A stretch of 64,000 nucleotides of DNA from Promethearchaeota archaeon (GTDB lineage Archaea > Asgardarchaeota > Lokiarchaeia > Sigyniarchaeales > SOKP01). The stretch spans positions 512,001 to 576,000 of the forward strand of contig JBHLNF010000001.1 in the NCBI GenBank assembly GCA_048937405.1, in the 5' to 3' direction. Positions within the stretch are counted from its first letter, which is position 1, and every line of letters starts with the position of its first letter. A model generated the notes under the pieces. The model was not told where the DNA came from, did not search any database, and was given only the letters and a program-made list of their open reading frames with translations. A program made the position numbers and the translations under genes. Of this stretch, positions 43,873-57,085 are shown piece after piece.

Positions 43873-45018
43873 TTAAAAACATCGATGGATAACTTGAGGA
43901 CCTAATTCCTTGTAATCTCGTCTAGTAATCCACATCCTATAAAAAGTCTTTAAAGAACTTAAAATAGATCCGCCAATCCACACCGAATACATTCGTTCAG
44001 GAGGAGCTATTATTTTGACATCAATTGATTCTGGAATTTGTTCTTTGATTTCTCGGGTTAATCTCTCTTTAATACCGGGAAACATTGTAGAACCACCTGA
44101 AAGAACAATATTACTATAAAGATCTCTTCGTAAATCTACATCACACTCAGATATTGCGCCTATTATAACATCATCTAAGGGAGCTAATTCTTTTCCTACA
44201 ACAGAAGGATTAAATAAACATTCCGGAGCTAAAAACCTTTCAAGTCCAATTGTAATAGTTTCACCATCAGGAAGCATAAAATTCTTTGCCATCCCAGCTA
44301 CTTTATTGGAAAGAATAATTTCCTTTTCTGGATCAATAGCAACATAGCATAATTTTTCTTTAATATCTCTTACAATCTCTTTCTCGGCTGAAGTATAAAA
44401 TGAATATCCATTTTGCCTTAATAACCTCTGCAAATATGTTGTAACATCCCTTCCAGCTAGATCAATTCGCTGTATCGCATGACTTAATGCAAATCCCTCA
44501 AATATGGGTACTATATGTGCAACTCCATCTCCGATATCTACAACACATCCCGTCGTTCGACCAGAAGCATAAAGTGATAAGACTGCTTGTGTTGCGATAT
44601 AAAGAGCTGGGACATTGAATGTTTCGAACATTATTTCTGCCATTTTTTCTCTATTTGATCTGGGATTCAATGGAGCTTCTGTTAATAGTACAGGAAATTC
44701 TGATGGATCAATTCTTAGATCTGTATAGAATGTATAATGATATATTCTTTCCATTGCTGGCCAATCTTCAACAACTCCATGTTCGATAGGAAATTGTAGA
44801 TTCATTATCCCTTTTAATTCCATCGCTTCTTCTCCAATATACCATTCTCGACTGTAATCTTTTACATCAGGCATAATGTTACCATATTTTGGTTTTCCAA
44901 TAACAGTTGGAAAAACCGAACGTGGCTGATCTTCACCTCCAAAACCATTTTTTGAGATTCCTGTCCCATTATCTATAACAATAGCTCTATTATTTCTAAA
45001 GTCCCCGTTGACTGAAAT
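43873..45018 (-). CDS. Asgard actin homolog (381 aa), probable ATT start
   Basis: Frame extends 48 codons upstream of the track ATG and adds IVIDNGTGISKNGFGGEDQPRSVFPT; also LLTEAPLNP, LYASGRTTG, DIGDG, LSGGSTMFPG, SVWIGGSIL and IHRCF. Confidence 0.95.
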   Translation of the reverse strand: MSVNGDFRNNRAIVIDNGTGISKNGFGGEDQPRSVFPTVIGKPKYGNIMPDVKDYSREWYIGEEAMELKGIMNLQFPIEHGVVEDWPAMERIYHYTFYTDLRIDPSEFPVLLTEAPLNPRSNREKMAEIMFETFNVPALYIATQAVLSLYASGRTTGCVVDIGDGVAHIVPIFEGFALSHAIQRIDLAGRDVTTYLQRLLRQNGYSFYTSAEKEIVRDIKEKLCYVAIDPEKEIILSNKVAGMAKNFMLPDGETITIGLERFLAPECLFNPSVVGKELAPLDDVIIGAISECDVDLRRDLYSNIVLSGGSTMFPGIKERLTREIKEQIPESIDVKIIAPPERMYSVWIGGSILSSLKTFYRMWITRRDYKELGPQVIHRCF

Positions 45019-45616: not shown

Positions 45617-46681
45617 TTATTTTTTAAGCAAGTTTATCAACTTTTTTACTATTAGATCCCCCATTTCTTTTGTAGTTAGTGTTTTAAAAGCACTATTCTC
45701 AATATCTATGGTTCTTCCTTCGTTAAGGGCTTCCTCCACAGATTTCTCAATTAAAAAACCTATTTCTGGAGAATTGAATGATTCTTGCAACATTAGCTTT
45801 ACACTTAGAATAGTGCCTATTGGATTAGCTATATTTTTTCCAGCAATATCAGGAGCCGAACCATGTATTGGTTCATACATAGATACATGTCCGGGATTTA
45901 TGTTTCCACTGGCGGCCATTCCTAAACTACCAATCAGAAAAGCACCTTCATCACTAGTAATATCACCAAACATATTGCCTGTAACTACTGTTTCGTAAGA
46001 ATAAGGAGCACGAATTAACCATTGACAAAAAGCATCAATATAAACATCCTCTTTCTCTAAATCGGGATAATCTTCACCAATTTTATGAAAGATATTACGC
46101 CAAAATTGACTTGCTTTTATAACATTTGCTTTATCAACAGAAGTAATTTTTTTATGACCATTCTTCTTTGCAAATTCACAAGCATATCGCATAATTCGTT
46201 CACACCCTTTTTTTGTATAAAACATTACACTTTCTGCGCTCTCATCTGATATTTCTCCGATTCCTTTATATATTCCCTCTGTATTTTCTCTAATAATAGT
46301 GAAATCAATACCTTTTCCTATAAATTCATCTCTAAGTGGACATCTATCACGTAGAGGATAATATAACTTGATTGGCCTCATATTCACGTATAGGTCTAAA
46401 TCTTGCCTTATCTTTAAGATTGCAGATTCAGCAATTCCGGGGGGTAAATCAGGAAGTCCAATAGCACCAAATAATAAAGCATCAGAATTTTTAATAATTT
46501 CAAATGTCTTTTTTGGAAGGCTTTCACCACAATCTTTCCAAACTTTACCTCCAGCTGGAGCGTTTATAAATTCAAAATCAAAATCACTATATTCAGAAAT
46601 AACTTTTAGAATCTTTATCCCTTCTTCTACTACTTCTAATCCACATCCATCACCATGAGTGACTGCAATTTCTTTTTTCAT
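45617..46681 (-). CDS. leuB: 3-isopropylmalate dehydrogenase
   Basis: GDGCGLEV, RENTEG, NMFGDITSD and EPIHGSAPDIAG motifs; operon context. Confidence 0.92.
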   Translation of the reverse strand: MKKEIAVTHGDGCGLEVVEEGIKILKVISEYSDFDFEFINAPAGGKVWKDCGESLPKKTFEIIKNSDALLFGAIGLPDLPPGIAESAILKIRQDLDLYVNMRPIKLYYPLRDRCPLRDEFIGKGIDFTIIRENTEGIYKGIGEISDESAESVMFYTKKGCERIMRYACEFAKKNGHKKITSVDKANVIKASQFWRNIFHKIGEDYPDLEKEDVYIDAFCQWLIRAPYSYETVVTGNMFGDITSDEGAFLIGSLGMAASGNINPGHVSMYEPIHGSAPDIAGKNIANPIGTILSVKLMLQESFNSPEIGFLIEKSVEEALNEGRTIDIENSAFKTLTTKEMGDLIVKKLINLLKK

Positions 46682-47199
46682 TATGATCCCTCTTCTGAAT
46701 TGGTAATTTGTTCTCTTGCAAAATTTATTAGACCTTGTGCTTTAATTATTTTCTGTAAAAAAGCTGGAAATTTGCTAAAGGAATATGATTTGCTAGTGGT
46801 TATATTTTCTATAATTCCGTTCCCAAAGTCAATATTTAGTAGATCTCCATTATTAAAAGCATCGATGTCAGAAAACCGAAGAATTGGAAGTCCAATATTA
46901 ATGGCATTTCTGAAAAATATACGTGCAAAACTGGGAGCGATAATTAATTCTATTCCCGAAGCTTTTAAAGCAATTGGTGCTTGTTCTCGGCTTGAACCAC
47001 AACCAAAATTTGAGCCTGAGACGAGAATTGTTGCCTGAAGATTATCTTTATTCTTATGAAACTCCCCATCTAAATCTTCCATGCAATGCTCAGCTAAAAA
47101 CTGAGGATTTATGTCTACTAAGTATCGAGCAGGGATTATTAAATCTGTATTGATATTTTCTTGAGCATATTTAATTACTTTTCCTTTTATTTCTATCAC
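46681..47199 (-). CDS. leuD: 3-isopropylmalate dehydratase small subunit
   Basis: INTDLIIPARYL, NFGCGSSREQA and FARIFFRN motifs; start may be ATA 47190. Confidence 0.93.
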   Translation of the reverse strand: MIEIKGKVIKYAQENINTDLIIPARYLVDINPQFLAEHCMEDLDGEFHKNKDNLQATILVSGSNFGCGSSREQAPIALKASGIELIIAPSFARIFFRNAINIGLPILRFSDIDAFNNGDLLNIDFGNGIIENITTSKSYSFSKFPAFLQKIIKAQGLINFAREQITNSEEGS

Positions 47200-47215
47200 C
47201 TTTTATATTTTACCT

Positions 47216-48487
47216 TTATATACTTTCTGGAGATATAATAAACCCTTTTAAAGCGGAAGATGCAGCAATCACTGGATTTGATAAATAGACTTCGCTTTCG
47301 GTGTGTCCCATCCTTCCCATAAAATTTCTATTTGTTGTTGATATTGCTCTTTCACCAGGAGCAAGGATTCCCATATGTCCTCCTAAACATGGTCCACATG
47401 TGGGTGGAGAAACAACCGCTCCAGCTTTAAGAAAAATTTCGATTAATCCTTCTTTAAGAGCATGAAGTTGAATGGTAGGAGTCCCTGGAATAATAATGCA
47501 TCTCACATTTGGATGGACCTTGTTGTTTTTCATTATTTTTGCTGCTAACCGTAGATCTTCCATTCGTCCATTGGTACAAGAACCTATTACCGCTTGGTCG
47601 ATTTCAATATGTAAATCTTGTACTTCAGATATAGGTTTTGTATTGCTTGGTAAGTGTGGAAGAGCTATTTGAGGTTCAATATTACTACAATCAATCTCAA
47701 TACTATCATGATATTTCACATTATTATCATCATATGTTTTAAATTTTGAAATTCCTACACTTTTCATATATTGTTCAGTAATTTTATCTGGAAAAATGAA
47801 TCCTGTTTTTGCTCCAGCTTCTATCGCCATATTACACATAGTAAAACGGTTTGTCATAGAAAAGTTGTTGATAATTTCTCCTGTAAACTCCATAACCTTA
47901 TATGTTGCCCCATCAACCCCAATTTTACCAATGGTATACAAAATTAAATCTTTACCAGAAACCCATTTATTCAACTGACCAGTATATATGAATCTCAAGG
48001 TTTCAGGTACTTGTAACCAACATTTTCCAAGAGCCATGGCTACACCTAGATCAGTCGAGCCAACACCCGTAGAAAAGGCTCCTAATGCCCCATATGTACA
48101 AGTATGAGAATCAGCACCAATAATTAACTCACTTGGAGCAACTAAACCCTGTTCGGGAATAAGACAATGTTCAATGCCTACTTTTCCTATTTCAAAATAG
48201 TGTTGAATGTGGTATTTCTTTGCAAAATCTTTTAAAATTTTGCACTGTATTGCCGAAGCAATATCCTTATTTGGTGTAAAATGATCTGGTGTAATTATTA
48301 TCTTGCTCGGATCGAAAACACTTCTTTCAGTTCCTTCAATAACTTTTTCGAAAACTTCTATAGCTTTTGGTGCAGTTATATCATTACCTAAACATTTATC
48401 GATATTTACTAAAACAAAATCTCCAGCAGAAATGTCCTTTTGATCACAATGATCTCTTATAATTTTTTCACTAATTGTTAGATCCAT
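47216..48487 (-). CDS. leuC: 3-isopropylmalate dehydratase large subunit
   Basis: GADSHTCT, IGSCTNGR, CGPCLGGH and NRNFMGRMG motifs. Confidence 0.94.
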   Translation of the reverse strand: MDLTISEKIIRDHCDQKDISAGDFVLVNIDKCLGNDITAPKAIEVFEKVIEGTERSVFDPSKIIITPDHFTPNKDIASAIQCKILKDFAKKYHIQHYFEIGKVGIEHCLIPEQGLVAPSELIIGADSHTCTYGALGAFSTGVGSTDLGVAMALGKCWLQVPETLRFIYTGQLNKWVSGKDLILYTIGKIGVDGATYKVMEFTGEIINNFSMTNRFTMCNMAIEAGAKTGFIFPDKITEQYMKSVGISKFKTYDDNNVKYHDSIEIDCSNIEPQIALPHLPSNTKPISEVQDLHIEIDQAVIGSCTNGRMEDLRLAAKIMKNNKVHPNVRCIIIPGTPTIQLHALKEGLIEIFLKAGAVVSPPTCGPCLGGHMGILAPGERAISTTNRNFMGRMGHTESEVYLSNPVIAASSALKGFIISPESI

Positions 48488-48527: not shown

Positions 48528-50144
48528 TTATGACTGGCTTTTTTTCTTAACAATTAGGTTCAATCCTTTTATCAACGATAAAACAGAGCACATAACAATA
48601 TCTTCATGAATCGCACTAGCTTTAACCACTGTATTAGTTTCAACATCCATGATTTCAAGAGTAACATGCCCTAATGCCTCAGTCCCCCCTGTAATAGCAT
48701 CAATTTGAAAATTTAAAAGCACTATCTTACTCATCGGTTTAAAGCATTTAACAATTGCTTTACAGGAGGCATCTACAGGTCCTACTCCCGTTGCTGATGC
48801 TACTTTTTGCATTATATCTCCATTATTTTTGATGTTTAGTCGAACTGTTGATGTAGGTGTAACTGATCCAGTTAAAACAGTTAACTCCTCAAGCGTTACA
48901 AATTGTTCTTCTTTTGGTATTTCACCCATAACATCTTTCACAATAGCTAAGAAATCCTCTTCAGAAACTTCATGCCCCTTATCACCAAGACTTTTTACAT
49001 GTTCTCTTATTTTCATAAATTGTTCATCATTGGTCTTAATACCTAAGTCATCAATCTTAGCTTTAAGAGCATGACCACCTGTGTGTTTTCCAAGTTTTAT
49101 TGATTGCTTGATTATTGCTTCCACGTCGTCAGTACGGTGAATTCCTATTAATTCTGGAGTAATTGGTTCATATGTTCGTGCATGTTGTATCATTGCATGA
49201 GCATGGATACCTGCTTCATGAGCAAACGCATTCTGACCTATTAGTGGTTGCAATCGTCCGATCCTAACTTTTCCACCACAATAACTCTCAATTAATTTGG
49301 CTGTGGGAAAAATTTTTGTTGTTTTAATATTCATAGGGATCTGGTATAAAGCATAAAGAGACATACAAGTTTCTTCAAAAGATGCATTTCCTGCTCGTTC
49401 ACCCAATCCTAAAATAGTTGTTTGAGCTTCTGAAGCACCATTTTCAAACGCAGCGACAGTATTTGCAACAGCAAGGCCAAAATCATTATGACAATGGGCT
49501 GCAATACGAATATTTTTAGGTAAAGCTTCATGATTCTTCCGAATAATATATCCAAAAGCTACTGGAGATATTGTACCTACAGTGTCAGGTATATTTATTC
49601 GTGTGGCTCCGCTATCAATAGCAGTTAAATTAGCTTTAATTAAAAAGTCTAAATCTGATCTAGTAGCATCCTCTGCTGAAAATAAAACTATAGAATAATG
49701 TTCTTTAGCATAAGAGACAGTTTCTCTTATTCGTTCTATAACTTCATCTTTGGATAATTGAAGTTTTTCTCTCATATGTAATTCTGAAGTGGCGCAAAAT
49801 AAATGTATACTATCCATATCAGCCTCGATAACTTTATCTATATCGGGTTTCGCTGTTCTAGCTAAACCCATCACTTCAGAATCCAAACCCATTTTTGCAA
49901 TATCTCTACAAGCATCAAAATCACCTGGAGATGTTATAGGAAAACCCGCTTCTATAATATCAATTCCCAAATCATTAAGAGCTTGAGCAATAGATAGCTT
50001 TTCTTTATGAGTAAAACTTATACCTGGAGTTTGTTCCCCATCACGGAGTGTTGTATCAAAAAAGTATGCTCTCTCAGGAAGGATAAGTGATCCTCTAATT
50101 TTTTCCATCATGTCGGAAACAGCAATATCGTTTTTATTTACCAT
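48528..50144 (-). CDS. leuA: 2-isopropylmalate synthase with C-terminal regulatory domain
   Basis: DTTLRDGEQ, HCHNDFG, GERAGN and GVGPVDA motifs; heads leuCDB; Leu-rich leader supports the leucine pathway. Confidence 0.9.
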   Translation of the reverse strand: MVNKNDIAVSDMMEKIRGSLILPERAYFFDTTLRDGEQTPGISFTHKEKLSIAQALNDLGIDIIEAGFPITSPGDFDACRDIAKMGLDSEVMGLARTAKPDIDKVIEADMDSIHLFCATSELHMREKLQLSKDEVIERIRETVSYAKEHYSIVLFSAEDATRSDLDFLIKANLTAIDSGATRINIPDTVGTISPVAFGYIIRKNHEALPKNIRIAAHCHNDFGLAVANTVAAFENGASEAQTTILGLGERAGNASFEETCMSLYALYQIPMNIKTTKIFPTAKLIESYCGGKVRIGRLQPLIGQNAFAHEAGIHAHAMIQHARTYEPITPELIGIHRTDDVEAIIKQSIKLGKHTGGHALKAKIDDLGIKTNDEQFMKIREHVKSLGDKGHEVSEEDFLAIVKDVMGEIPKEEQFVTLEELTVLTGSVTPTSTVRLNIKNNGDIMQKVASATGVGPVDASCKAIVKCFKPMSKIVLLNFQIDAITGGTEALGHVTLEIMDVETNTVVKASAIHEDIVMCSVLSLIKGLNLIVKKKSQS

Positions 50145-50180
50145 GTTTTTAACCTTTTATAATTTTATTTAAAATACATA

Positions 50181-50228
50181 GCCCTTATGCTTTCAAGAAG
50201 AAAAATTCGCTCTAGAAAGAATTAGGGC
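50181..50228 (-). promoter_or_regulatory. leu leader hairpin (candidate attenuator element)
   Basis: GCCCTAATTCTTTCTAGAGCGAA pairs imperfectly with TTCTTCTTGAAAGCATAAGGGC; starts 3 nt after the leader stop; followed by TATGTATTTT. Confidence 0.7.
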
Positions 50229-50231
50229 GCT

Positions 50232-50333
50232 TTATAATAATAAGAGTAATAACAAACTCAATAATTCTAAAGGAAATAAACCTCTCAAACTTATTTTATT
50301 ATTAGAAATAAGTAGACTTTGAGTAGCTTTCAT
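50232..50333 (-). CDS. leu operon leader peptide (33 aa, 14 Leu)
   Basis: MKATQSLLISNNKISLRGLFPLELLSLLLLLLL-stop; AGGA SD-like motif upstream; 87 nt before leuA. Confidence 0.82.
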   Translation of the reverse strand: MKATQSLLISNNKISLRGLFPLELLSLLLLLLL

Positions 50334-50384
50334 AATTTATAATCCTATTAGAATTTATGATTATTAAAATAGATTGATTATAAC

Positions 50385-50400
50385 CTTATAAATTTTTCTC
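50385..50400 (-). promoter_or_regulatory. BRE-TATA promoter of the leu leader/operon
   Basis: GAGAAAAA-TTTATAAG on the minus strand, about 50 nt upstream of the leader ATG. Confidence 0.6.
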
Positions 50401-50742
50401 TGAATTAGGTTACAATCATTTTAGAAAAGGTCTGAAACTCTTTTGAATATAGGATTACTATTAAAGAATTGTCAAACCAATTGATTTTTACTTGAAAAAG
50501 AAAAGATATTTATAATAATTTCTTTTGACCAATACCTATTTTTTCTAATAGTAGAAATTAAAGGTGAATCTGAAAGCCCTACTTCTTCCAAGAAATGGAG
50601 TATATCCTTGAATTTTGTAAAAGTAGTTTGATATTTTCCTTTTTTAAAATAAATTAATCCAATTCTATTATTATATTTGGATTTTTTTAATTTTTTGTAT
50701 TTTTTCTAGGTATAAAAAGAATTATCTTAATCTATAAGTAGG

Positions 50743-51105
50743 TTATCTCACTACTTCAAATAGTTCAAGTAGCACATTATCAGGAGCACTAGCCATTACA
50801 TATTTCAAGTTATTAAGACTTTTTATTTCATTACTAAATTGATAACCTATACTTTTCATATGTTCTACAAGAGTTTCTAAATCATTGGTCTCAAATCCTA
50901 AATGCCAAAATGCTCCACTTCCTTTATCTTTAGGTGCTTGATTATAGATAATTATTTTTGATGCTCCAATTTCAATCATTACATTTCGAGTTTCAGCGGA
51001 TCCTCTATCGAACAAAATTTTAGCTTCAAACATATCTTGATAAAATTTGACACTTTCATCAAGATCAGATGCAAATAAATGGATATGATGAAGTGAGGTT
51101 TCCAT
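50743..51105 (-). CDS. VOC / glyoxalase-bleomycin resistance family protein
   Basis: LHHIHL..FYQDMF..HLGF..PDNVLLEL. Confidence 0.88.
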   Translation of the reverse strand: METSLHHIHLFASDLDESVKFYQDMFEAKILFDRGSAETRNVMIEIGASKIIIYNQAPKDKGSGAFWHLGFETNDLETLVEHMKSIGYQFSNEIKSLNNLKYVMASAPDNVLLELFEVVR

Positions 51106-51182
51106 AAATATTTTCCCTTTGAAATTTTTTTTTATTGTTATAAAATTTAATTATAGATATTTATCTAAAGCAAATATTATTT

Positions 51183-52217
51183 TTAGAATCTTTTTATTTT
51201 CTTAGGATATGCTTCAAACGACGTCCGAGGTTCTACAGAAATCCAATCCAAATTTTCTTCTAAATGTGAAAGAGATCTTAATAAATCAAAAGTTAACCAG
51301 CGTGTGGCTCTTGGATGTGCTATATAATCCCATAGACCATATTCTCCTTGTTCAGATTTTACAAAGTTGATAAAATCAGAAATCCTTTCATCATTTTTAC
51401 TTCCTCCAACTCTCCAACATAAATTTAATAAATGGGCAATGTCAAATTTTGCCATAAATGTAATAATTCCAAGGTTTCTTTCTAAACCAATTAACCGAGC
51501 TATTATAAAACCAAGATTACTTCTTAACTTTGAATCTGTTCCGAGTATTAAATCAAGAGCTCTCTTAGCTTCATCACTTTTACTATATTTTGGATGATAA
51601 GCAAGACAACTAAGAACAGTTGTAGTATTAGATCGACATCCCCATCTTGAATGGGCAAGACGGCGATATCCCGCAATACCGCCATAATTACCTGCAGATA
51701 TCCCTACAGGCCATGCACCGTCTTCTAAACGTTGTTCCATTAACCAATCAAATGAATTCTTAATTCTTTTATCAGTATAGTATCCACACATAACTAATCC
51801 TAAAAGAGGAATTGCTGTTTGAACAGGCATCATTTGATATCCAATTTCTTCATCAGTAAGTTGTTTCTTGCTTGGCATTGGCCAAGACCCGTCTTCAAGC
51901 TGTTTTGAAAAGAGAAATTCTGCTGCTTTCTGCACCACTGGATGATTTGAATCAAATCCGAAGTAGCCTAATCTCTGTAATGCCATTGAAGTTATTTGAA
52001 GGTTGTCGCTTGAAGATATTCGATTTACACCAAAAGAATCCCATGCTCCATTAGTTTTTTGGAGCTTGAATAATTCATTAACAAGTGGATCTGATTCCCT
52101 TATCTCTGACAATTCAAGCACTTCATTATCATCCTGAGGTAAGTGTAACAATTCAGTTAAGACCAAAAATCGTAAACAATATGATGGATCTGTTAATAAA
52201 AGTGGAATCCAGGTCAT
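51183..52217 (-). CDS. prenyltransferase/squalene cyclase-like alpha/alpha-barrel protein
   Basis: QxxxGxW repeats (QKTNGAW, QLEDGSW, QRLEDGAW, QGEYGLW); overlaps the UvrA-like gene stop. Confidence 0.75.
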   Translation of the reverse strand: MTWIPLLLTDPSYCLRFLVLTELLHLPQDDNEVLELSEIRESDPLVNELFKLQKTNGAWDSFGVNRISSSDNLQITSMALQRLGYFGFDSNHPVVQKAAEFLFSKQLEDGSWPMPSKKQLTDEEIGYQMMPVQTAIPLLGLVMCGYYTDKRIKNSFDWLMEQRLEDGAWPVGISAGNYGGIAGYRRLAHSRWGCRSNTTTVLSCLAYHPKYSKSDEAKRALDLILGTDSKLRSNLGFIIARLIGLERNLGIITFMAKFDIAHLLNLCWRVGGSKNDERISDFINFVKSEQGEYGLWDYIAHPRATRWLTFDLLRSLSHLEENLDWISVEPRTSFEAYPKKIKRF

Positions 52218-55200
52218 TTTCCTCCCTCTAATACTTCTTTTAAATATGGTGCTGTAGGAGTGTTTAGTTTAGCTACTTCACTAGGTGGTCCTTGTGCAAT
52301 TACATAGCCTCCTTCTGGGCCTGCTCCTGGTCCTAACTCTATTAGCCAATCACAAGAAGCCAATATATGGGGATGATGTTCAATAACAACTACACTATTG
52401 CCATTATCAACTAATAAATGTAGGGTATTAATTAGCTTAGAAACATCTTCTAAGTGTTGACCAATAGTCGGTTCATCTAGAATATATTGTGTCTCTTTTT
52501 TAGAATTTTTAGATAGTTTTTTTACAATCTTAAGTCTTTGGGCTTCACCACCAGAAAGAGTACGAGCAGGTTGATTTAGTTGTAAATATTGTAGTCCTAC
52601 TTTTTTAGCATAATTTAATTTAGTAGAAATAGATTCATAATCTCCAAATAATTCATATGCTTCCTCAATAGTTAAATTATTAATATCAGGCAAGGAAATT
52701 CCTTTAAAATGAACTTGCCATGCTTCAATTTGATACCCCGATCCATTACAAGTTTCACAAGTCTCAATAATATTAGGAAGAAATTTCATATCTATTTTGA
52801 TATAACCTCCCCCTTGACAAACAGAACATCTCTTTTTTAGTTTTTTTTCATCTAAAGCTAAAATTTTTGCATCTTCAGTCTCAGAAAATATTTTTATTAT
52901 TGGAGATTCTAATCCTAAAAATTTAAGAGGACTTCCGATTTTAGATTTTGTTTGATCGATTAATATTGTCTGAGGTAAGTTACCTTCAATCTTCTCATAC
53001 TCTCCCGGGTCAATAGGTTCTCGAGATACTGATGTTGTATGTTTAATAGGTACCAAGGCTCTTCCCAACGTGTCAATTATTAGAGTACTTTTTCCTGAAC
53101 CAGAAACCCCACATACTCCTACTAATAATTTATGAGGAATCTCAATTAAATCCCCCTTTAAATTGTATTCTTTTGCTCCATAGATCTTTAACCATTTTTT
53201 AGGTTCTCGGTGTTTTTTAGATACTTCAAATTTCTTTTTTCCACTCATCCAATCTCCCGTAATAGTTTTTGCTTTTATTATATCTTCTATAGTTCCTTCT
53301 GCAACAATTTCCCCCCCATTTACTCCCGCTCCAGGGCCCATATCAATTATATAATCCGCATTATTAATAATTAAAGGATCATGTTCAATAACTATGACTG
53401 TATTTCCGTTGTCCCTTAGTGCTTTTAATACATCTAATAAATTTTCAATTTCTGGAGGAGATAAACCTCTACTAGGCTCATCAAGTAAAATTATTAAAGA
53501 TGTCAAATCACTACCCAATAATCCAGCTAGTCGCACTCTTTGAGCTTCTCCAGCAGATAAACTTTCAGCAACACGATTTAGAGTAATATAGCCTAATCCA
53601 ATTTTAAGTAAAAAATCCAAACGTGTTAAAATGATCTTATAACTGTTTTTTACAAGATCAGGAATATAATCTTCAATCTTTACATCTTTTAATATTCCAT
53701 ATAATTTGTTCAAAGAAATGTTACACATCTGAGGTATATTATAACCTTCTAATGAAATTGCTAAGTATTGAGGACGTAATTTTAATCCATTACATTCATC
53801 ACAAGTTTTTTTATCTGTATATGTACCTCCAACATCCCAATCTCTTAACCATTGTCCATAAAAACCTTGATACTGAATTAATTTCCTAGAGATTTGACCT
53901 TTCTTATTTTCAAATTCAACATCTAAAACTTCTTTATCTCCAAATAAAAATGCATCTTTTGCTTCTTTTGACATTTCAATCCAGGGTTTTGAAAAAGGAT
54001 CAAAACCATAACGAGTTGCTAAAGCTTGGACTATATAATATCCACCATTATATGGTTTACATAGATAACCTTTCGGAAAAAAACCTGGAGAGTACATGGC
54101 ACCGTTACATAATGGTTTCTCGGGGTGAATTATTAATTTATTAGGATTAGGAACTTGAAATGAACCAACACCATGGCATTTGAGGCAAGCTGCCGAATAA
54201 TTTGTAGAAATAAAATGTCGTGGTTTAGCAAGAGGTAATGAGATATTACACTTTTTACAATACCATTTTTCCTTTCTTTCCATTTTATGATTACATTTAG
54301 GACATAATATTTCTCCCATATATGAAAATATATTCGCTAAATGGAGTGTTAAACCTGTAACCCTTCCTATAGTATTTCGAAGATTCAAAAACCAACCATG
54401 GATAATCTTTTCTGGTATTATTGATGCTGTTATCCCTAGACCTTGAATCTTTTCTACTAACGCTTCGGTACTTTCTTTAGTACTTTGTCTTTCATACATT
54501 GATAAGGTTTCTAAATATCTACGTCTTGCTTCCATCTCAAGTGTATCCATTATTAGGCTGGATTTCCCTGATCCTGAAACACCTGTGACTACAGTAAATT
54601 TCTTTTTTGGGATTTTGACATCTACATTCTTAAGATTATGAGCATGAGCGTTTTGAATGATAATGTATTCTGAACTTTTTCTTACTTTCTTTTTTTTTTG
54701 GATTAATGGCATAACACGCTCTTCCATTTTTAAGGATTGAGCAGTAAGAGATTCTTCAGTTTCCATAAACTTATCTAAAGGACCTTGATACATAACTTTA
54801 CCACCATTTGGTCCTGAACCCTGACCAAGGTCTATGACCCAATCAGCAGCCCTAATTATATCAATATTGTGTTCTACGATCACAATTGTTGCTCCATTGT
54901 GGAGTAATCTATCTAAAATTGTTAATAATCCCGCTAAATCTTGAGAGTGTAATCCTGTTGAAGGTTCATCAAGAATTATTAAATGATCTTTTAAATTTTT
55001 TTTTCCAAGGTATTTTGATAATTTAATTCGCTGAGCTTCACCCCCAGATAATGTTGGAGAAGGTTGACCTAAGGAGAGATATCCTAAACCTATATCATTA
55101 AGAGCTTTTAACATTTGTCTTACTGATTTAAAATCTCCAACAGTCAATCTTTTTTCTTTATCAAAAATCTTTACAACTTCTGAAATTGGTAGATCATAGA

Positions 55201-57085
55201 ATTCTGCTATAGAATACTCCTTATCCTCAAACTGAACTTTTTCCTCAAGTATCTCTTCAGAAAATCTCTGCCCATTACAGTCTGGACATGTGATCCAATT
55301 AGAGGGTAAATATCTCATCTTAATTTCAAGGGAACCCATCCCGTTACATGTTAGACATTGTCCTTCTGGAGTATTGAATGAAAAGAACGTAGCTTTAAAT
55401 TTAGTAGCTTTGGCAAATAGCTTTCTAATAATATCAGCAATTTTAGTGTAAGTAGCTGGATTTGATCTTGGATTTTTCCCTATAGGTCCTTGATCTACCA
55501 TGATAGGTCTCAATTTTGTTCCGGTAATGTTATTACAACCTATTGGTTCTTTTTTTTTTAATGAACTAAACAAAACATCTTCTACCAATGTACTTTTTCC
55601 AGAACCAGATACACCTGTTATAACCGTTAGTCGGTTTAAGGGAATTTTAACATTAATATTTTTCAAATTATGCTTATAAGCTTTCTCAATTGTTAGAAAG
55701 AGTTGAGGTTTAGCTCTATGCTGGGGAATTATTACTCGTTCTCTCAAGCTAAAAAACTTTCCAGTAGGTGTATCTGATTTCCATAACTCTGCAGGAGTCC
55801 CAGTAAATATAATCTCACCCCCTTCTCTTCCAGCTCCCGGACCAATATCAATAACATTGTCTGCATACATGGCAGCTTGCCGATCGTGTTCAATATAAAT
55901 TATTGGACCAGCAAGATTCTGAAGTATTGGCAGTAATCGCGCAACGTCAGATGGATGTTGACCAATCGTTGGTTCATCAAGGATATGAGTAATATCTTCT
56001 AATTCACTTAATAAGGCAATAGCTAGTCGAACTCTTTGAGATTCTCCCCTAGATAATGTTGGTGAAACACGGTCTAATTCTAAATAATCTAATCCTACAG
56101 AATTTAATGAAAATAACCGTCTTTTTATTTCTTGTAATAACCTAACCGTAATCGAAAGTTCTTCTTTATAGAAATAAGCTACTAGTTCTCCAACTGATTT
56201 TGTTAAAATCTCGGGAAATAACATCCCCTCCCAAGTAACATTAGATGCAAGAGGGTGATATCCTGTTTCATTACATTGCTTGCACCCTTTTCCTTTACAA
56301 TAAGGACAATTTTTCTTAAAATGCATTGGCTCAAGATCTCCGAACCAAGTACCACATTCCACACATGCAGGCACTCGAGAAATAAGAAAATTAGATGTTT
56401 TTCCTTTAATTATTAATGAATTTGACCCTAATGAAGAGATAATTTTAACTATGTCTCGGATCTCATTAATATTAGTGCTTGTTGTTACTTGGCCAATTTG
56501 AATCTGAATATCATGAGGTTCTTTTGGATTTAATTTTGAAATTATGGATTGTCCATCCACCAAGATAGTTTCAGGACTGAATTTCTTCTTCAAAAGGTTA
56601 ATTAAGGTTTGATGACTCCCTTTTAATTTTCTTACTAAAAGAGCTGATATTGTAACTGGCTCGATATGTCTTAATCCTTCAATTTTCGCGATTATTTCAT
56701 CTTCTCTTAAAATGGATAATTTAGAACCGCAAACATGACATGTTCTATCACCAAATCTAGCATAAAGAATTTTTAATAAAGGTATAAGACCTATCGCAGA
56801 TGCCAAAATAGAATTAGGGTTTCGGTTAAGTACATTTTGACTAAGCGCTATTGTAGGTCCTAAACCAGTGATTGACCTTACTTTTGCAGGATTTAGTTTC
56901 ATCTCTTCTTTACTAACTGAAAATGCTTCTAAAAATCTACGTCTAGCTTCTTTATATAATGTATCGAATATTAGTGAGGTTTTTCCCGATCCAGAAACCC
57001 CTGTTACCACAGTAAGTCCGTCCTTGATGGTAACATCAATATCTTTTAGGTTGTTTTCTCTTGCACCTTGAATTTTTATTTCCAT
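52214..57085 (-). CDS. uvrA: double-length UvrA-like ATPase (four ABC nucleotide-binding domains)
   Basis: Four GVSGSGK Walker A motifs, four LSxGE signatures, multiple CxxC pairs. Confidence 0.88.
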   Translation of the reverse strand: MEIKIQGARENNLKDIDVTIKDGLTVVTGVSGSGKTSLIFDTLYKEARRRFLEAFSVSKEEMKLNPAKVRSITGLGPTIALSQNVLNRNPNSILASAIGLIPLLKILYARFGDRTCHVCGSKLSILREDEIIAKIEGLRHIEPVTISALLVRKLKGSHQTLINLLKKKFSPETILVDGQSIISKLNPKEPHDIQIQIGQVTTSTNINEIRDIVKIISSLGSNSLIIKGKTSNFLISRVPACVECGTWFGDLEPMHFKKNCPYCKGKGCKQCNETGYHPLASNVTWEGMLFPEILTKSVGELVAYFYKEELSITVRLLQEIKRRLFSLNSVGLDYLELDRVSPTLSRGESQRVRLAIALLSELEDITHILDEPTIGQHPSDVARLLPILQNLAGPIIYIEHDRQAAMYADNVIDIGPGAGREGGEIIFTGTPAELWKSDTPTGKFFSLRERVIIPQHRAKPQLFLTIEKAYKHNLKNINVKIPLNRLTVITGVSGSGKSTLVEDVLFSSLKKKEPIGCNNITGTKLRPIMVDQGPIGKNPRSNPATYTKIADIIRKLFAKATKFKATFFSFNTPEGQCLTCNGMGSLEIKMRYLPSNWITCPDCNGQRFSEEILEEKVQFEDKEYSIAEFYDLPISEVVKIFDKEKRLTVGDFKSVRQMLKALNDIGLGYLSLGQPSPTLSGGEAQRIKLSKYLGKKNLKDHLIILDEPSTGLHSQDLAGLLTILDRLLHNGATIVIVEHNIDIIRAADWVIDLGQGSGPNGGKVMYQGPLDKFMETEESLTAQSLKMEERVMPLIQKKKKVRKSSEYIIIQNAHAHNLKNVDVKIPKKKFTVVTGVSGSGKSSLIMDTLEMEARRRYLETLSMYERQSTKESTEALVEKIQGLGITASIIPEKIIHGWFLNLRNTIGRVTGLTLHLANIFSYMGEILCPKCNHKMERKEKWYCKKCNISLPLAKPRHFISTNYSAACLKCHGVGSFQVPNPNKLIIHPEKPLCNGAMYSPGFFPKGYLCKPYNGGYYIVQALATRYGFDPFSKPWIEMSKEAKDAFLFGDKEVLDVEFENKKGQISRKLIQYQGFYGQWLRDWDVGGTYTDKKTCDECNGLKLRPQYLAISLEGYNIPQMCNISLNKLYGILKDVKIEDYIPDLVKNSYKIILTRLDFLLKIGLGYITLNRVAESLSAGEAQRVRLAGLLGSDLTSLIILLDEPSRGLSPPEIENLLDVLKALRDNGNTVIVIEHDPLIINNADYIIDMGPGAGVNGGEIVAEGTIEDIIKAKTITGDWMSGKKKFEVSKKHREPKKWLKIYGAKEYNLKGDLIEIPHKLLVGVCGVSGSGKSTLIIDTLGRALVPIKHTTSVSREPIDPGEYEKIEGNLPQTILIDQTKSKIGSPLKFLGLESPIIKIFSETEDAKILALDEKKLKKRCSVCQGGGYIKIDMKFLPNIIETCETCNGSGYQIEAWQVHFKGISLPDINNLTIEEAYELFGDYESISTKLNYAKKVGLQYLQLNQPARTLSGGEAQRLKIVKKLSKNSKKETQYILDEPTIGQHLEDVSKLINTLHLLVDNGNSVVVIEHHPHILASCDWLIELGPGAGPEGGYVIAQGPPSEVAKLNTPTAPYLKEVLEGGK

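Follow-up and report, generated by a model that had tools for sequence, protein, structure and literature searches.

Organization of the leu locus

The window analyzed in this work is the whole stretch of 64,000 nucleotides from an archaeon of the Promethearchaeota, whose genome has a GC content of 28.9%. On its reverse strand lies a leucine biosynthesis operon that is preceded by a short leucine-rich open reading frame (ORF) and by two predicted RNA helices, designated H1 and H2. The positions of these features are collected in Table 1. The four genes are arranged on the same strand in the order leuA-leuC-leuD-leuB, and the last three, which together occupy 45617..48487, are tightly spaced or overlap. 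That leuACDB follows the short ORF had been proposed from the sequence alone, and the NCBIfam and Pfam matches given in the table bear this out.

Table 1. Features of the leu leader region and operon (positions in the window; all features are read on the reverse strand)
Feature	Position	Strand	Description
Putative promoter	50386..50399	-	BRE-like tract plus TATA box, upstream of the leader ORF
BRE-like AGAAAAA	50399-50393	-	Purine-rich; direct sequence reading
TATA box TTTATAA	50392-50386	-	Directly after the BRE-like tract
H1 5' arm	50343..50355	-	In the 5' UTR; contains the SD-like AGGA of the leader
SD-like AGGA of leader	50346-50343	-	9 nt before the ATG, at -13..-10
Leader ORF	50333..50232	-	33 codons, 14 Leu; ATG at 50333, stop TAA at 50234-50232
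H1 3' arm	50263..50274	-	Codons 20-24 (FPLEL); pairs with the 5' UTR arm
H1-H2 linker	50262-50229	-	34 nt, predicted single-stranded, U-rich; holds the Leu run and the stop
Terminal Leu run	50235..50255	-	Codons 27-33, TTG TTA TTA CTC TTA TTA TTA, then TAA
H2 hairpin	50181..50228	-	48 nt, starts 3 nt after the stop; dG -17.4 kcal/mol, z -3.3 to -3.5
H2-leuA spacer	50145..50180	-	36 nt, A/U-rich; leuA SD AGGT at 50155-50152
leuA	48528..50144	-	2-isopropylmalate synthase; NCBIfam NF002085, 563 bits (cut-off 517)
leuC	48487-47216	-	Isopropylmalate isomerase, aconitase-family large subunit; Pfam Aconitase
leuD	47199-46681	-	Isopropylmalate isomerase, aconitase-family small subunit; Pfam Aconitase_C
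leuB	46681-45617	-	Isopropylmalate dehydrogenase; Pfam Iso_dh

From the usual archaeal distance of about 26 nt between the TATA box and the start site, transcription is predicted to begin near 50362. In the order of reading, the TATA box is followed by a stretch of about 30 nt that contains the AGGA, and then by the leader ATG. Nearly all of the approximately 48 related loci carry a purine tract and a TTTATAA/TTTTTAAAA-type box 62-50 nt before the ATG of the upstream ORF (uORF), and in the aligned spacer between the uORF and leuA of these loci a consistently TATA-like box was not seen.

The surroundings of the operon are as follows. Immediately downstream, at 43873-44874, is a gene for an actin homologue (Pfam Actin, 378 bits), and upstream are a relative of the squalene-hopene cyclase C-terminal domain (51183-52217) and a 1623-residue ORF of unknown nature (52214-57085), all on the reverse strand. 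The actin homologue and the names of the MAGs with close leuA loci, given below, are in keeping with an Asgard origin of the window. In the 4.47-Mb assembly, which is rated 100% complete, ARAGORN reported 7-14 tRNA genes, none of them for Leu; possible causes of this low count are intron-containing or split genes, or genes that are absent from the MAG.

The leader ORF and its conservation

The position of the leader AGGA coincides with the genome-wide peak of SD-like words, and the ATG of leuA, at 50144, is found 87 nt past the leader stop. The original prediction had described the whole arrangement, namely the BRE and TATA elements, the AGGA, the ATG at 50333, the 33 codons with 14 for Leu, the seven terminal Leu codons, the following hairpin and the distance of 87 nt to leuA, and it proved right in every detail. 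When the intergenic ATG-started short ORFs of the whole genome (8-80 aa) were collected, a run of at least seven Leu was present in 2 of 7563, one of which is the leader itself.

For comparison, we used the leuA loci of related Promethearchaeia (Loki-type), which come from MAGs named Promethearchaeota or Promethearchaeia. Of the 49 close loci of the species collection, 46 have an equivalent ATG-started uORF that ends in a run of 3-8 Leu. This count, like the others given below, overstates the independent support because the compared sequences are relatives. In the three exceptions the upstream sequence was too short or consisted of a run of N, and a covariance model later recovered the element in two of them. 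Loci L002-L012 likewise carry a Leu-run uORF before leuA. The distance from the leader stop to leuA in the relatives is 86-102 nt, except for one locus with 125 nt. The original prediction had named orthologous loci lacking a Leu-rich uORF as evidence against itself, and the feature survived this comparison.

What is conserved in the peptide is mainly its end: the N-terminal halves vary widely between groups, and every leader has the Leu-rich tail. The typical leader (median of 48) has 13 Leu among 34 codons. The tails draw on all six Leu codons, TTA accounting for 72% of them as against 51% genome-wide. The alternative frames of the same 48 leaders contain on average 4.2 and 2.2 stops, the +1 frame being open in none and the +2 frame in two. 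The six codons interchange and the Leu frame is the one that stays open, in line with the earlier argument that selection acts on leucine rather than on a simple microsatellite.

The occurrence of the leader follows that of leuA. Among the members of the genus searched for both, each of the six genomes with leuA has exactly one match to the leader model, and the model is absent from all eleven without leuA. In a wider sample of the class, the model, which was built from close relatives, matched 37 genomes, in eight genera of one family, out of 150. By eye, a second family was seen to share the architecture, in its loci L010-L012. A Leu-rich uORF was not found before leuA in the loci of two other Asgard families (L014-L017), in L013 or in the Hadarchaeota and methanogen loci; a Methanophagales locus (L096) has one weak candidate. 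The second model matches in L048 and L058 fall within a gene for a small GTPase and were rejected as spurious. As a separate observation, a leuA orthologue is absent from 17 of 24 sampled genomes of the same genus (G001-G024), some of which have an estimated completeness of 97-100%, and leucine biosynthesis thus appears to be patchy within the genus.

Two conserved helices around the leader

H1 is a long-range helix. Across the loci, the 5' UTR at about -28..-10 pairs with leader codons of about 18-26, enclosing an inner helix in the first half of the ORF. In a duplex scan, its z score was below -1.5 in 85% of the loci. At the H1 positions, 86.3% of the alignment cells were paired; shuffles gave 78.3% and slid controls 38-55%. 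Compensatory changes were seen in 13 of the 16 pairs. Both helices were aligned with a covariance model derived from a close subgroup, because in plain MAFFT alignments the arms were misaligned and RNAalifold detected no structure. Formation of H1 needs an RNA that starts at least about 30 nt before the leader ATG, which argues against a leaderless start at this ATG and fits the conserved BRE/TATA at -62..-50.

H2 is a hairpin that follows the leader stop. It was found by single-sequence folding in 51 of 51 loci, with a length of about 55 nt and medians of -20.5 kcal/mol for dG and -3.8 for the z score. Most of these hairpins begin 0-6 nt past the stop, and some predicted stems include the stop (range -3..+6); H2 ends about 36 nt before the leuA ATG. 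In the model-based alignment of 48 sequences, all 14 modelled pairs showed compensatory changes, pairing was 85.9% (70.6% in shuffles and 51-68% in slid controls), and the covariation score was 0.527 (0.26 in shuffles and 0.10-0.20 in slid controls). This alignment was fitted to the structure and is therefore biased in its favor, whereas the single-sequence folds are independent of the model. In the window, the 5' arm of H2 is pyrimidine-rich, the 3' arm is purine-rich, and a T5 tract (50205-50201) occupies the apical part.

The U fraction reaches 0.65-0.67 in the last 12 nt of the leader, and U-rich blocks also occur inside H2. The spacer between H2 and leuA carries the leuA SD at -11, in agreement with the genome-wide SD peak, and both its length of about 36 nt and an AAATT(T/A)AA(A/T)TAGGT-like motif are conserved (alignment A5). 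A partly palindromic AAATTTAAATAGGT-like motif within the spacer (50145-50180, reverse strand) is kept across genera. As read from the alignment, the conservation of the spacer exceeds what the SD alone would need.

Search for the parts of a classical switch

A classical attenuator contains mutually exclusive helices, one of them a terminator. When six segments of the leader were scanned pairwise for alternative pairing, only H1 and H2 exceeded the shuffled controls, and all other combinations had z scores near 0. Moreover, the halves of H2 fold weakly by themselves, at about -3 to -4 kcal/mol compared with -19 for the whole of H2. Taken together, these two results argue against a classical antiterminator/terminator switch.

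A terminator of the bacterial type was also looked for. In the related loci, a U-run directly after H2 was not found; a mixed A/U sequence occupies this place instead. Nor was a conserved oligo-T terminator: of 48 loci, 17 have a tract of T5 or longer somewhere between the leader stop and leuA, and 4 have one inside the spacer. Genome-wide, T5 or longer is found within 60 nt of 56% of stops, so that T-runs mark gene ends. Hairpins, on the other hand, are not enriched after genes in this genome, which rules out H2 as a typical gene-end hairpin.

Masking of the leuA ribosome site was not found in the 48 loci: the mean unpaired probability of positions -16..+6 was 0.53 with no ribosome on the leader, 0.57 with a ribosome at the stop and 0.60 with a ribosome five codons earlier. 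The Rfam family Leu_leader (RF00512) was not matched when cmscan was run on positions 49500-51200 with E up to 10, a search that returned just four weak, unrelated matches. The original prediction of a Leu-tRNA-sensing attenuator therefore stands in part: the conserved leader peptide with its cognate codons is there, whereas mutually exclusive helices and a conserved terminator were not found.

Cognate leaders on other operons of the genome

The original prediction had extended to uORFs enriched in the cognate residue before other amino acid biosynthesis genes, and in the same genome such uORFs were indeed found before cimA, hisIE, argJ, trpB2 and trpD. The one before cimA (contig C20:77277-77348, forward strand; L100:377-448) has 23 codons, 12 of them for Ile, ends in IIIIGIII and lies 105 nt before the gene, a citramalate synthase by its match to TIGR00977 (677 bits). 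After the uORF comes a stem of 13-14 bp with a pyrimidine-rich loop, and the arrangement looks like an Ile leader of the same build as the Leu leader. A His leader (C7:728539-728703, forward strand; L103) ends in LHHWLHHE before hisIE, with a hairpin of -20.8 kcal/mol directly after its stop, and an Arg leader (C7:747294-747389, reverse strand; L104) ends in ARRRL, 146 nt before argJ; the identities of hisIE and argJ were confirmed by NCBIfam. Two Trp leaders are both on the reverse strand: one (C7:23743-23793; L105) has the pattern W-x-W-x-W-x-W, 149 nt before trpB2, and the other (C11:2400-2501; L106) has the tail RWHWFWRA, 186 nt before trpD.

The background of such ORFs is low for Trp and His. 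Tails with at least three Trp within 260 nt upstream of a gene number three genome-wide, two of which precede cognate genes, and there are two His-rich tails within the same distance, one of them before a cognate gene. Short ORFs rich in W (C28), H (C25), R (C19), I (C7) and C (C26) have no gene of the cognate pathway downstream and were set aside as background. A further ORF rich in Ile, Leu and Val (C25:146804-146890, reverse strand; L102), with the tail LLVLLSLILILVLV, lies 104 nt before an operon for a four-subunit 2-oxoacid:ferredoxin oxidoreductase and has a structure of -15 kcal/mol after its stop. Such an ORF might serve a VOR-type enzyme as its branched-chain leader, or might have arisen by chance in an A+T-rich genome. 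Cognate leaders on five more operons are what a sensor of amino acid supply predicts, and are not predicted if the uORF simply encodes a small peptide or if the element acts as RNA alone.

Proposed mechanism

We consider it highly probable, from the comparative and computational evidence and by analogy, that the element is a leader-peptide sensor of leucine for leuACDB, with the stalling of the ribosome at Leu codons as its signal. The output that we favor is premature termination of transcription between the leader and leuA, brought about without a terminator of the bacterial type; in this part of the proposal our confidence falls a little short of even.

In the proposed scheme, the promoter about 60 nt before the mini-gene would give one transcript that contains the leader ORF, the two helices and the leu genes. 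A ribosome would load at the leader SD and ATG while the RNA is still emerging, and its progress through about 13 Leu codons, densest in the last seven, would report the supply of charged tRNA-Leu. Once codons 20-24 have been transcribed and the first ribosome has passed, H1 would form and shut the leader to later ribosomes. Since H1 closes the leader's own start region, the leader would be read once, by the first ribosome, which favors a co-transcriptional decision. When leucine is ample, the ribosome would arrive at the stop and unzip the G+C-rich base of H2, leaving U-rich nascent RNA open to the termination factor FttA; the transcript would be lost and the operon switched off. When leucine is short, the ribosome would be held in the Leu-rich stretch, H2 would fold and shield the RNA, the polymerase would continue and the operon would be on.

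The polarity of this scheme is read from the geometry. The ribosome was taken to reach about 13 nt beyond a Leu codon that occupies its A site. With this value, stalling at most of the Leu codons (a median of 10 of 13) would leave H2 out of reach, whereas arrival at the stop would bring the ribosome into contact with it. The favored polarity follows the logic of trp. As to the effector, the failure to find a conserved intrinsic terminator makes FttA the most plausible candidate. An FttA orthologue is encoded in the genome (TIGR03675, 883 bits against a cut-off of 580), and the factor is reported, for a distant archaeon, to need about 36 nt of single-stranded nascent RNA that is U-rich at -30..-36 (PMC11616081). 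A folded H2 would withhold U-rich single-stranded RNA from FttA. The gene for FttA and U-rich RNA beside the leader stop exist, as parts and as no more than that; the polarity, in which H2 is protective rather than inhibitory, and the role of FttA are what we infer from the geometry and from this one paper on a distant archaeon. A still wider proposal, which we put forward tentatively and regard as doubtful, is that Asgard archaea possess a genome-wide set of leader attenuators free of terminator hairpins (at least six operons here), in which the position of the first ribosome, acting via a hairpin that abuts the stop, gates the access of FttA to U-rich nascent RNA.

Alternative explanations

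Two alternatives keep the sensor and change its output, and each is rather unlikely, taking its share of the high probability given to the sensor as such. In one, the polarity is reversed: H2 would be a pause or termination hairpin, and the operon would come on when a ribosome stalled at the final Leu codons hides the 5' arm of H2. The Leu run does abut the stop, with H2 following 0-6 nt on, and a ribosome at the last one or two Leu codons would reach the base of H2. However, most of the Leu codons are too far upstream for this, severe starvation would stall the ribosome before H2, no U-run follows H2, and this genome makes no use of hairpins at its gene ends. The distance argument does not apply to a variant of the tnaC kind, in which the stalled ribosome covers the U-rich linker by the stop and so excludes a termination factor. 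The linker has about the length of one ribosome footprint and, if H1 shuts the leader after one ribosome, would be bare when leucine is abundant. The other alternative, which we rate about as low, is post-transcriptional: the stalled or terminating ribosome on the leader would alter the translation of leuA or the stability of the mRNA, in the manner of ermC or of the mycobacterial poly-Cys ORFs. It would account for the failure to find a conserved terminator in 48 loci and for the strong conservation of the spacer with its SD and of the interval of about 36 nt that separates H2 from the ATG, and it has a counterpart in the mycobacterial short ORFs with cognate codons, which act on operonic expression (10.1101/834739). 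Against it, the leuA ribosome site is equally unpaired in the three modelled ribosome states, no segment complementary to the spacer was found above chance, and the closure of the leader SD by H1 argues for a single early reading rather than for continuous sensing on mature mRNA.

Explanations that dispense with leucine sensing are weaker still. That the uORF encodes a hydrophobic peptide with a function of its own, or that the element is purely an RNA structure with an incidental reading frame, is very improbable. Both helices are indeed conserved as RNA structures. On the other hand, the residues other than Leu show poor conservation, the tail, with its 7-12 residues, could not span a membrane, only the Leu frame stays open, no Rfam family matches, and either version leaves the end-product-rich leaders of five other operons unexplained. 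Finally, in a genome as A+T-rich as this one, with TTA as the commonest Leu codon, a TTA-rich low-complexity tract might arise by chance. The probability of this is close to negligible and the comparative data already contradict it: such runs are rare in the genome, the position is kept in about 50 species with interchange of codons, and the run occurs together with leuA and with covarying helices on its flanks.

Comparison with known systems

Ribosome-mediated attenuation is a textbook mechanism of bacteria, and it needs translation to proceed alongside transcription. Like the enterobacterial leuL, trpL, hisL and pheL, the leader described here is a short ORF, with putative start signals of its own, that lies before a biosynthetic operon and probably on one transcript with it, with codons for the end product near its stop. 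In trpL, too, a large helix, the 2:3 antiterminator, begins a few nucleotides after the stop and cannot form once a ribosome has arrived there, as in the polarity favored here. Enterobacteria also resemble this genome in having several amino acid operons under one scheme. The differences are equally clear. The host here is an archaeon with a BRE/TATA promoter and an archaeal RNA polymerase; mutually exclusive helices, a terminator made of a hairpin and a U-run and a match to Leu_leader RF00512 were not found at this locus; the leader has a further helix, H1, that shuts its own ribosome site; and the Leu run, which takes up all of the last 7 codons in a leader with 14 Leu among 33 codons, is much longer. 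Judged by its architecture, the element would work like a bacterial leader attenuator, yet it fails two of the structural tests by which such attenuators are defined.

Outside the enterobacteria, cognate-codon runs that end a very short ORF directly before the biosynthetic gene have been described, mainly from comparative genomics, for the actinobacterial leuA and ilvB leader peptides (PMC1262725) and for the leaderless poly-Cys short ORFs of mycobacteria (10.1101/834739). Those leaders use alternative hairpins, either a terminator or one that hides a ribosome site, neither of which is detectable here. In the ermC type, likewise, the downstream ribosome site is hidden in a helix, whereas that of leuA is predicted to be open. 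A full-text literature search did not find a published cognate-amino-acid leader peptide in any archaeon; archaeal ribosome-profiling papers merely call uORFs reminiscent of such leaders.

The present element combines occurrence in eight genera of one family and in a second family with two covarying helices and with recurrence on five other amino acid operons of the genome. If it works as proposed, it would provide direct genetic evidence for functional coupling of transcription and translation in the closest prokaryotic relatives of eukaryotes, and would show how attenuation-type control can act on an RNA polymerase that works without hairpin terminators. It would also supply archaeal genetics with a regulatory part that is compact, at about 250 nt, and testable.

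Among the known systems, the tna operon of Escherichia coli needs no terminator hairpin: its control is Rho-dependent, and a ribosome held at or near the stop of tnaC decides whether the factor gains access to the adjacent RNA. We liken the leu leader to tnaC as a proposal only, with the differences that tnaC senses free tryptophan through the nascent peptide and not the charging of tRNA, and that the factor here would be FttA, a CPSF73-like nuclease, in place of Rho. If the gating of FttA is true, the leu leader would represent an archaeal-specific form of attenuation that joins translation to a 3'-end machinery of the eukaryotic kind.
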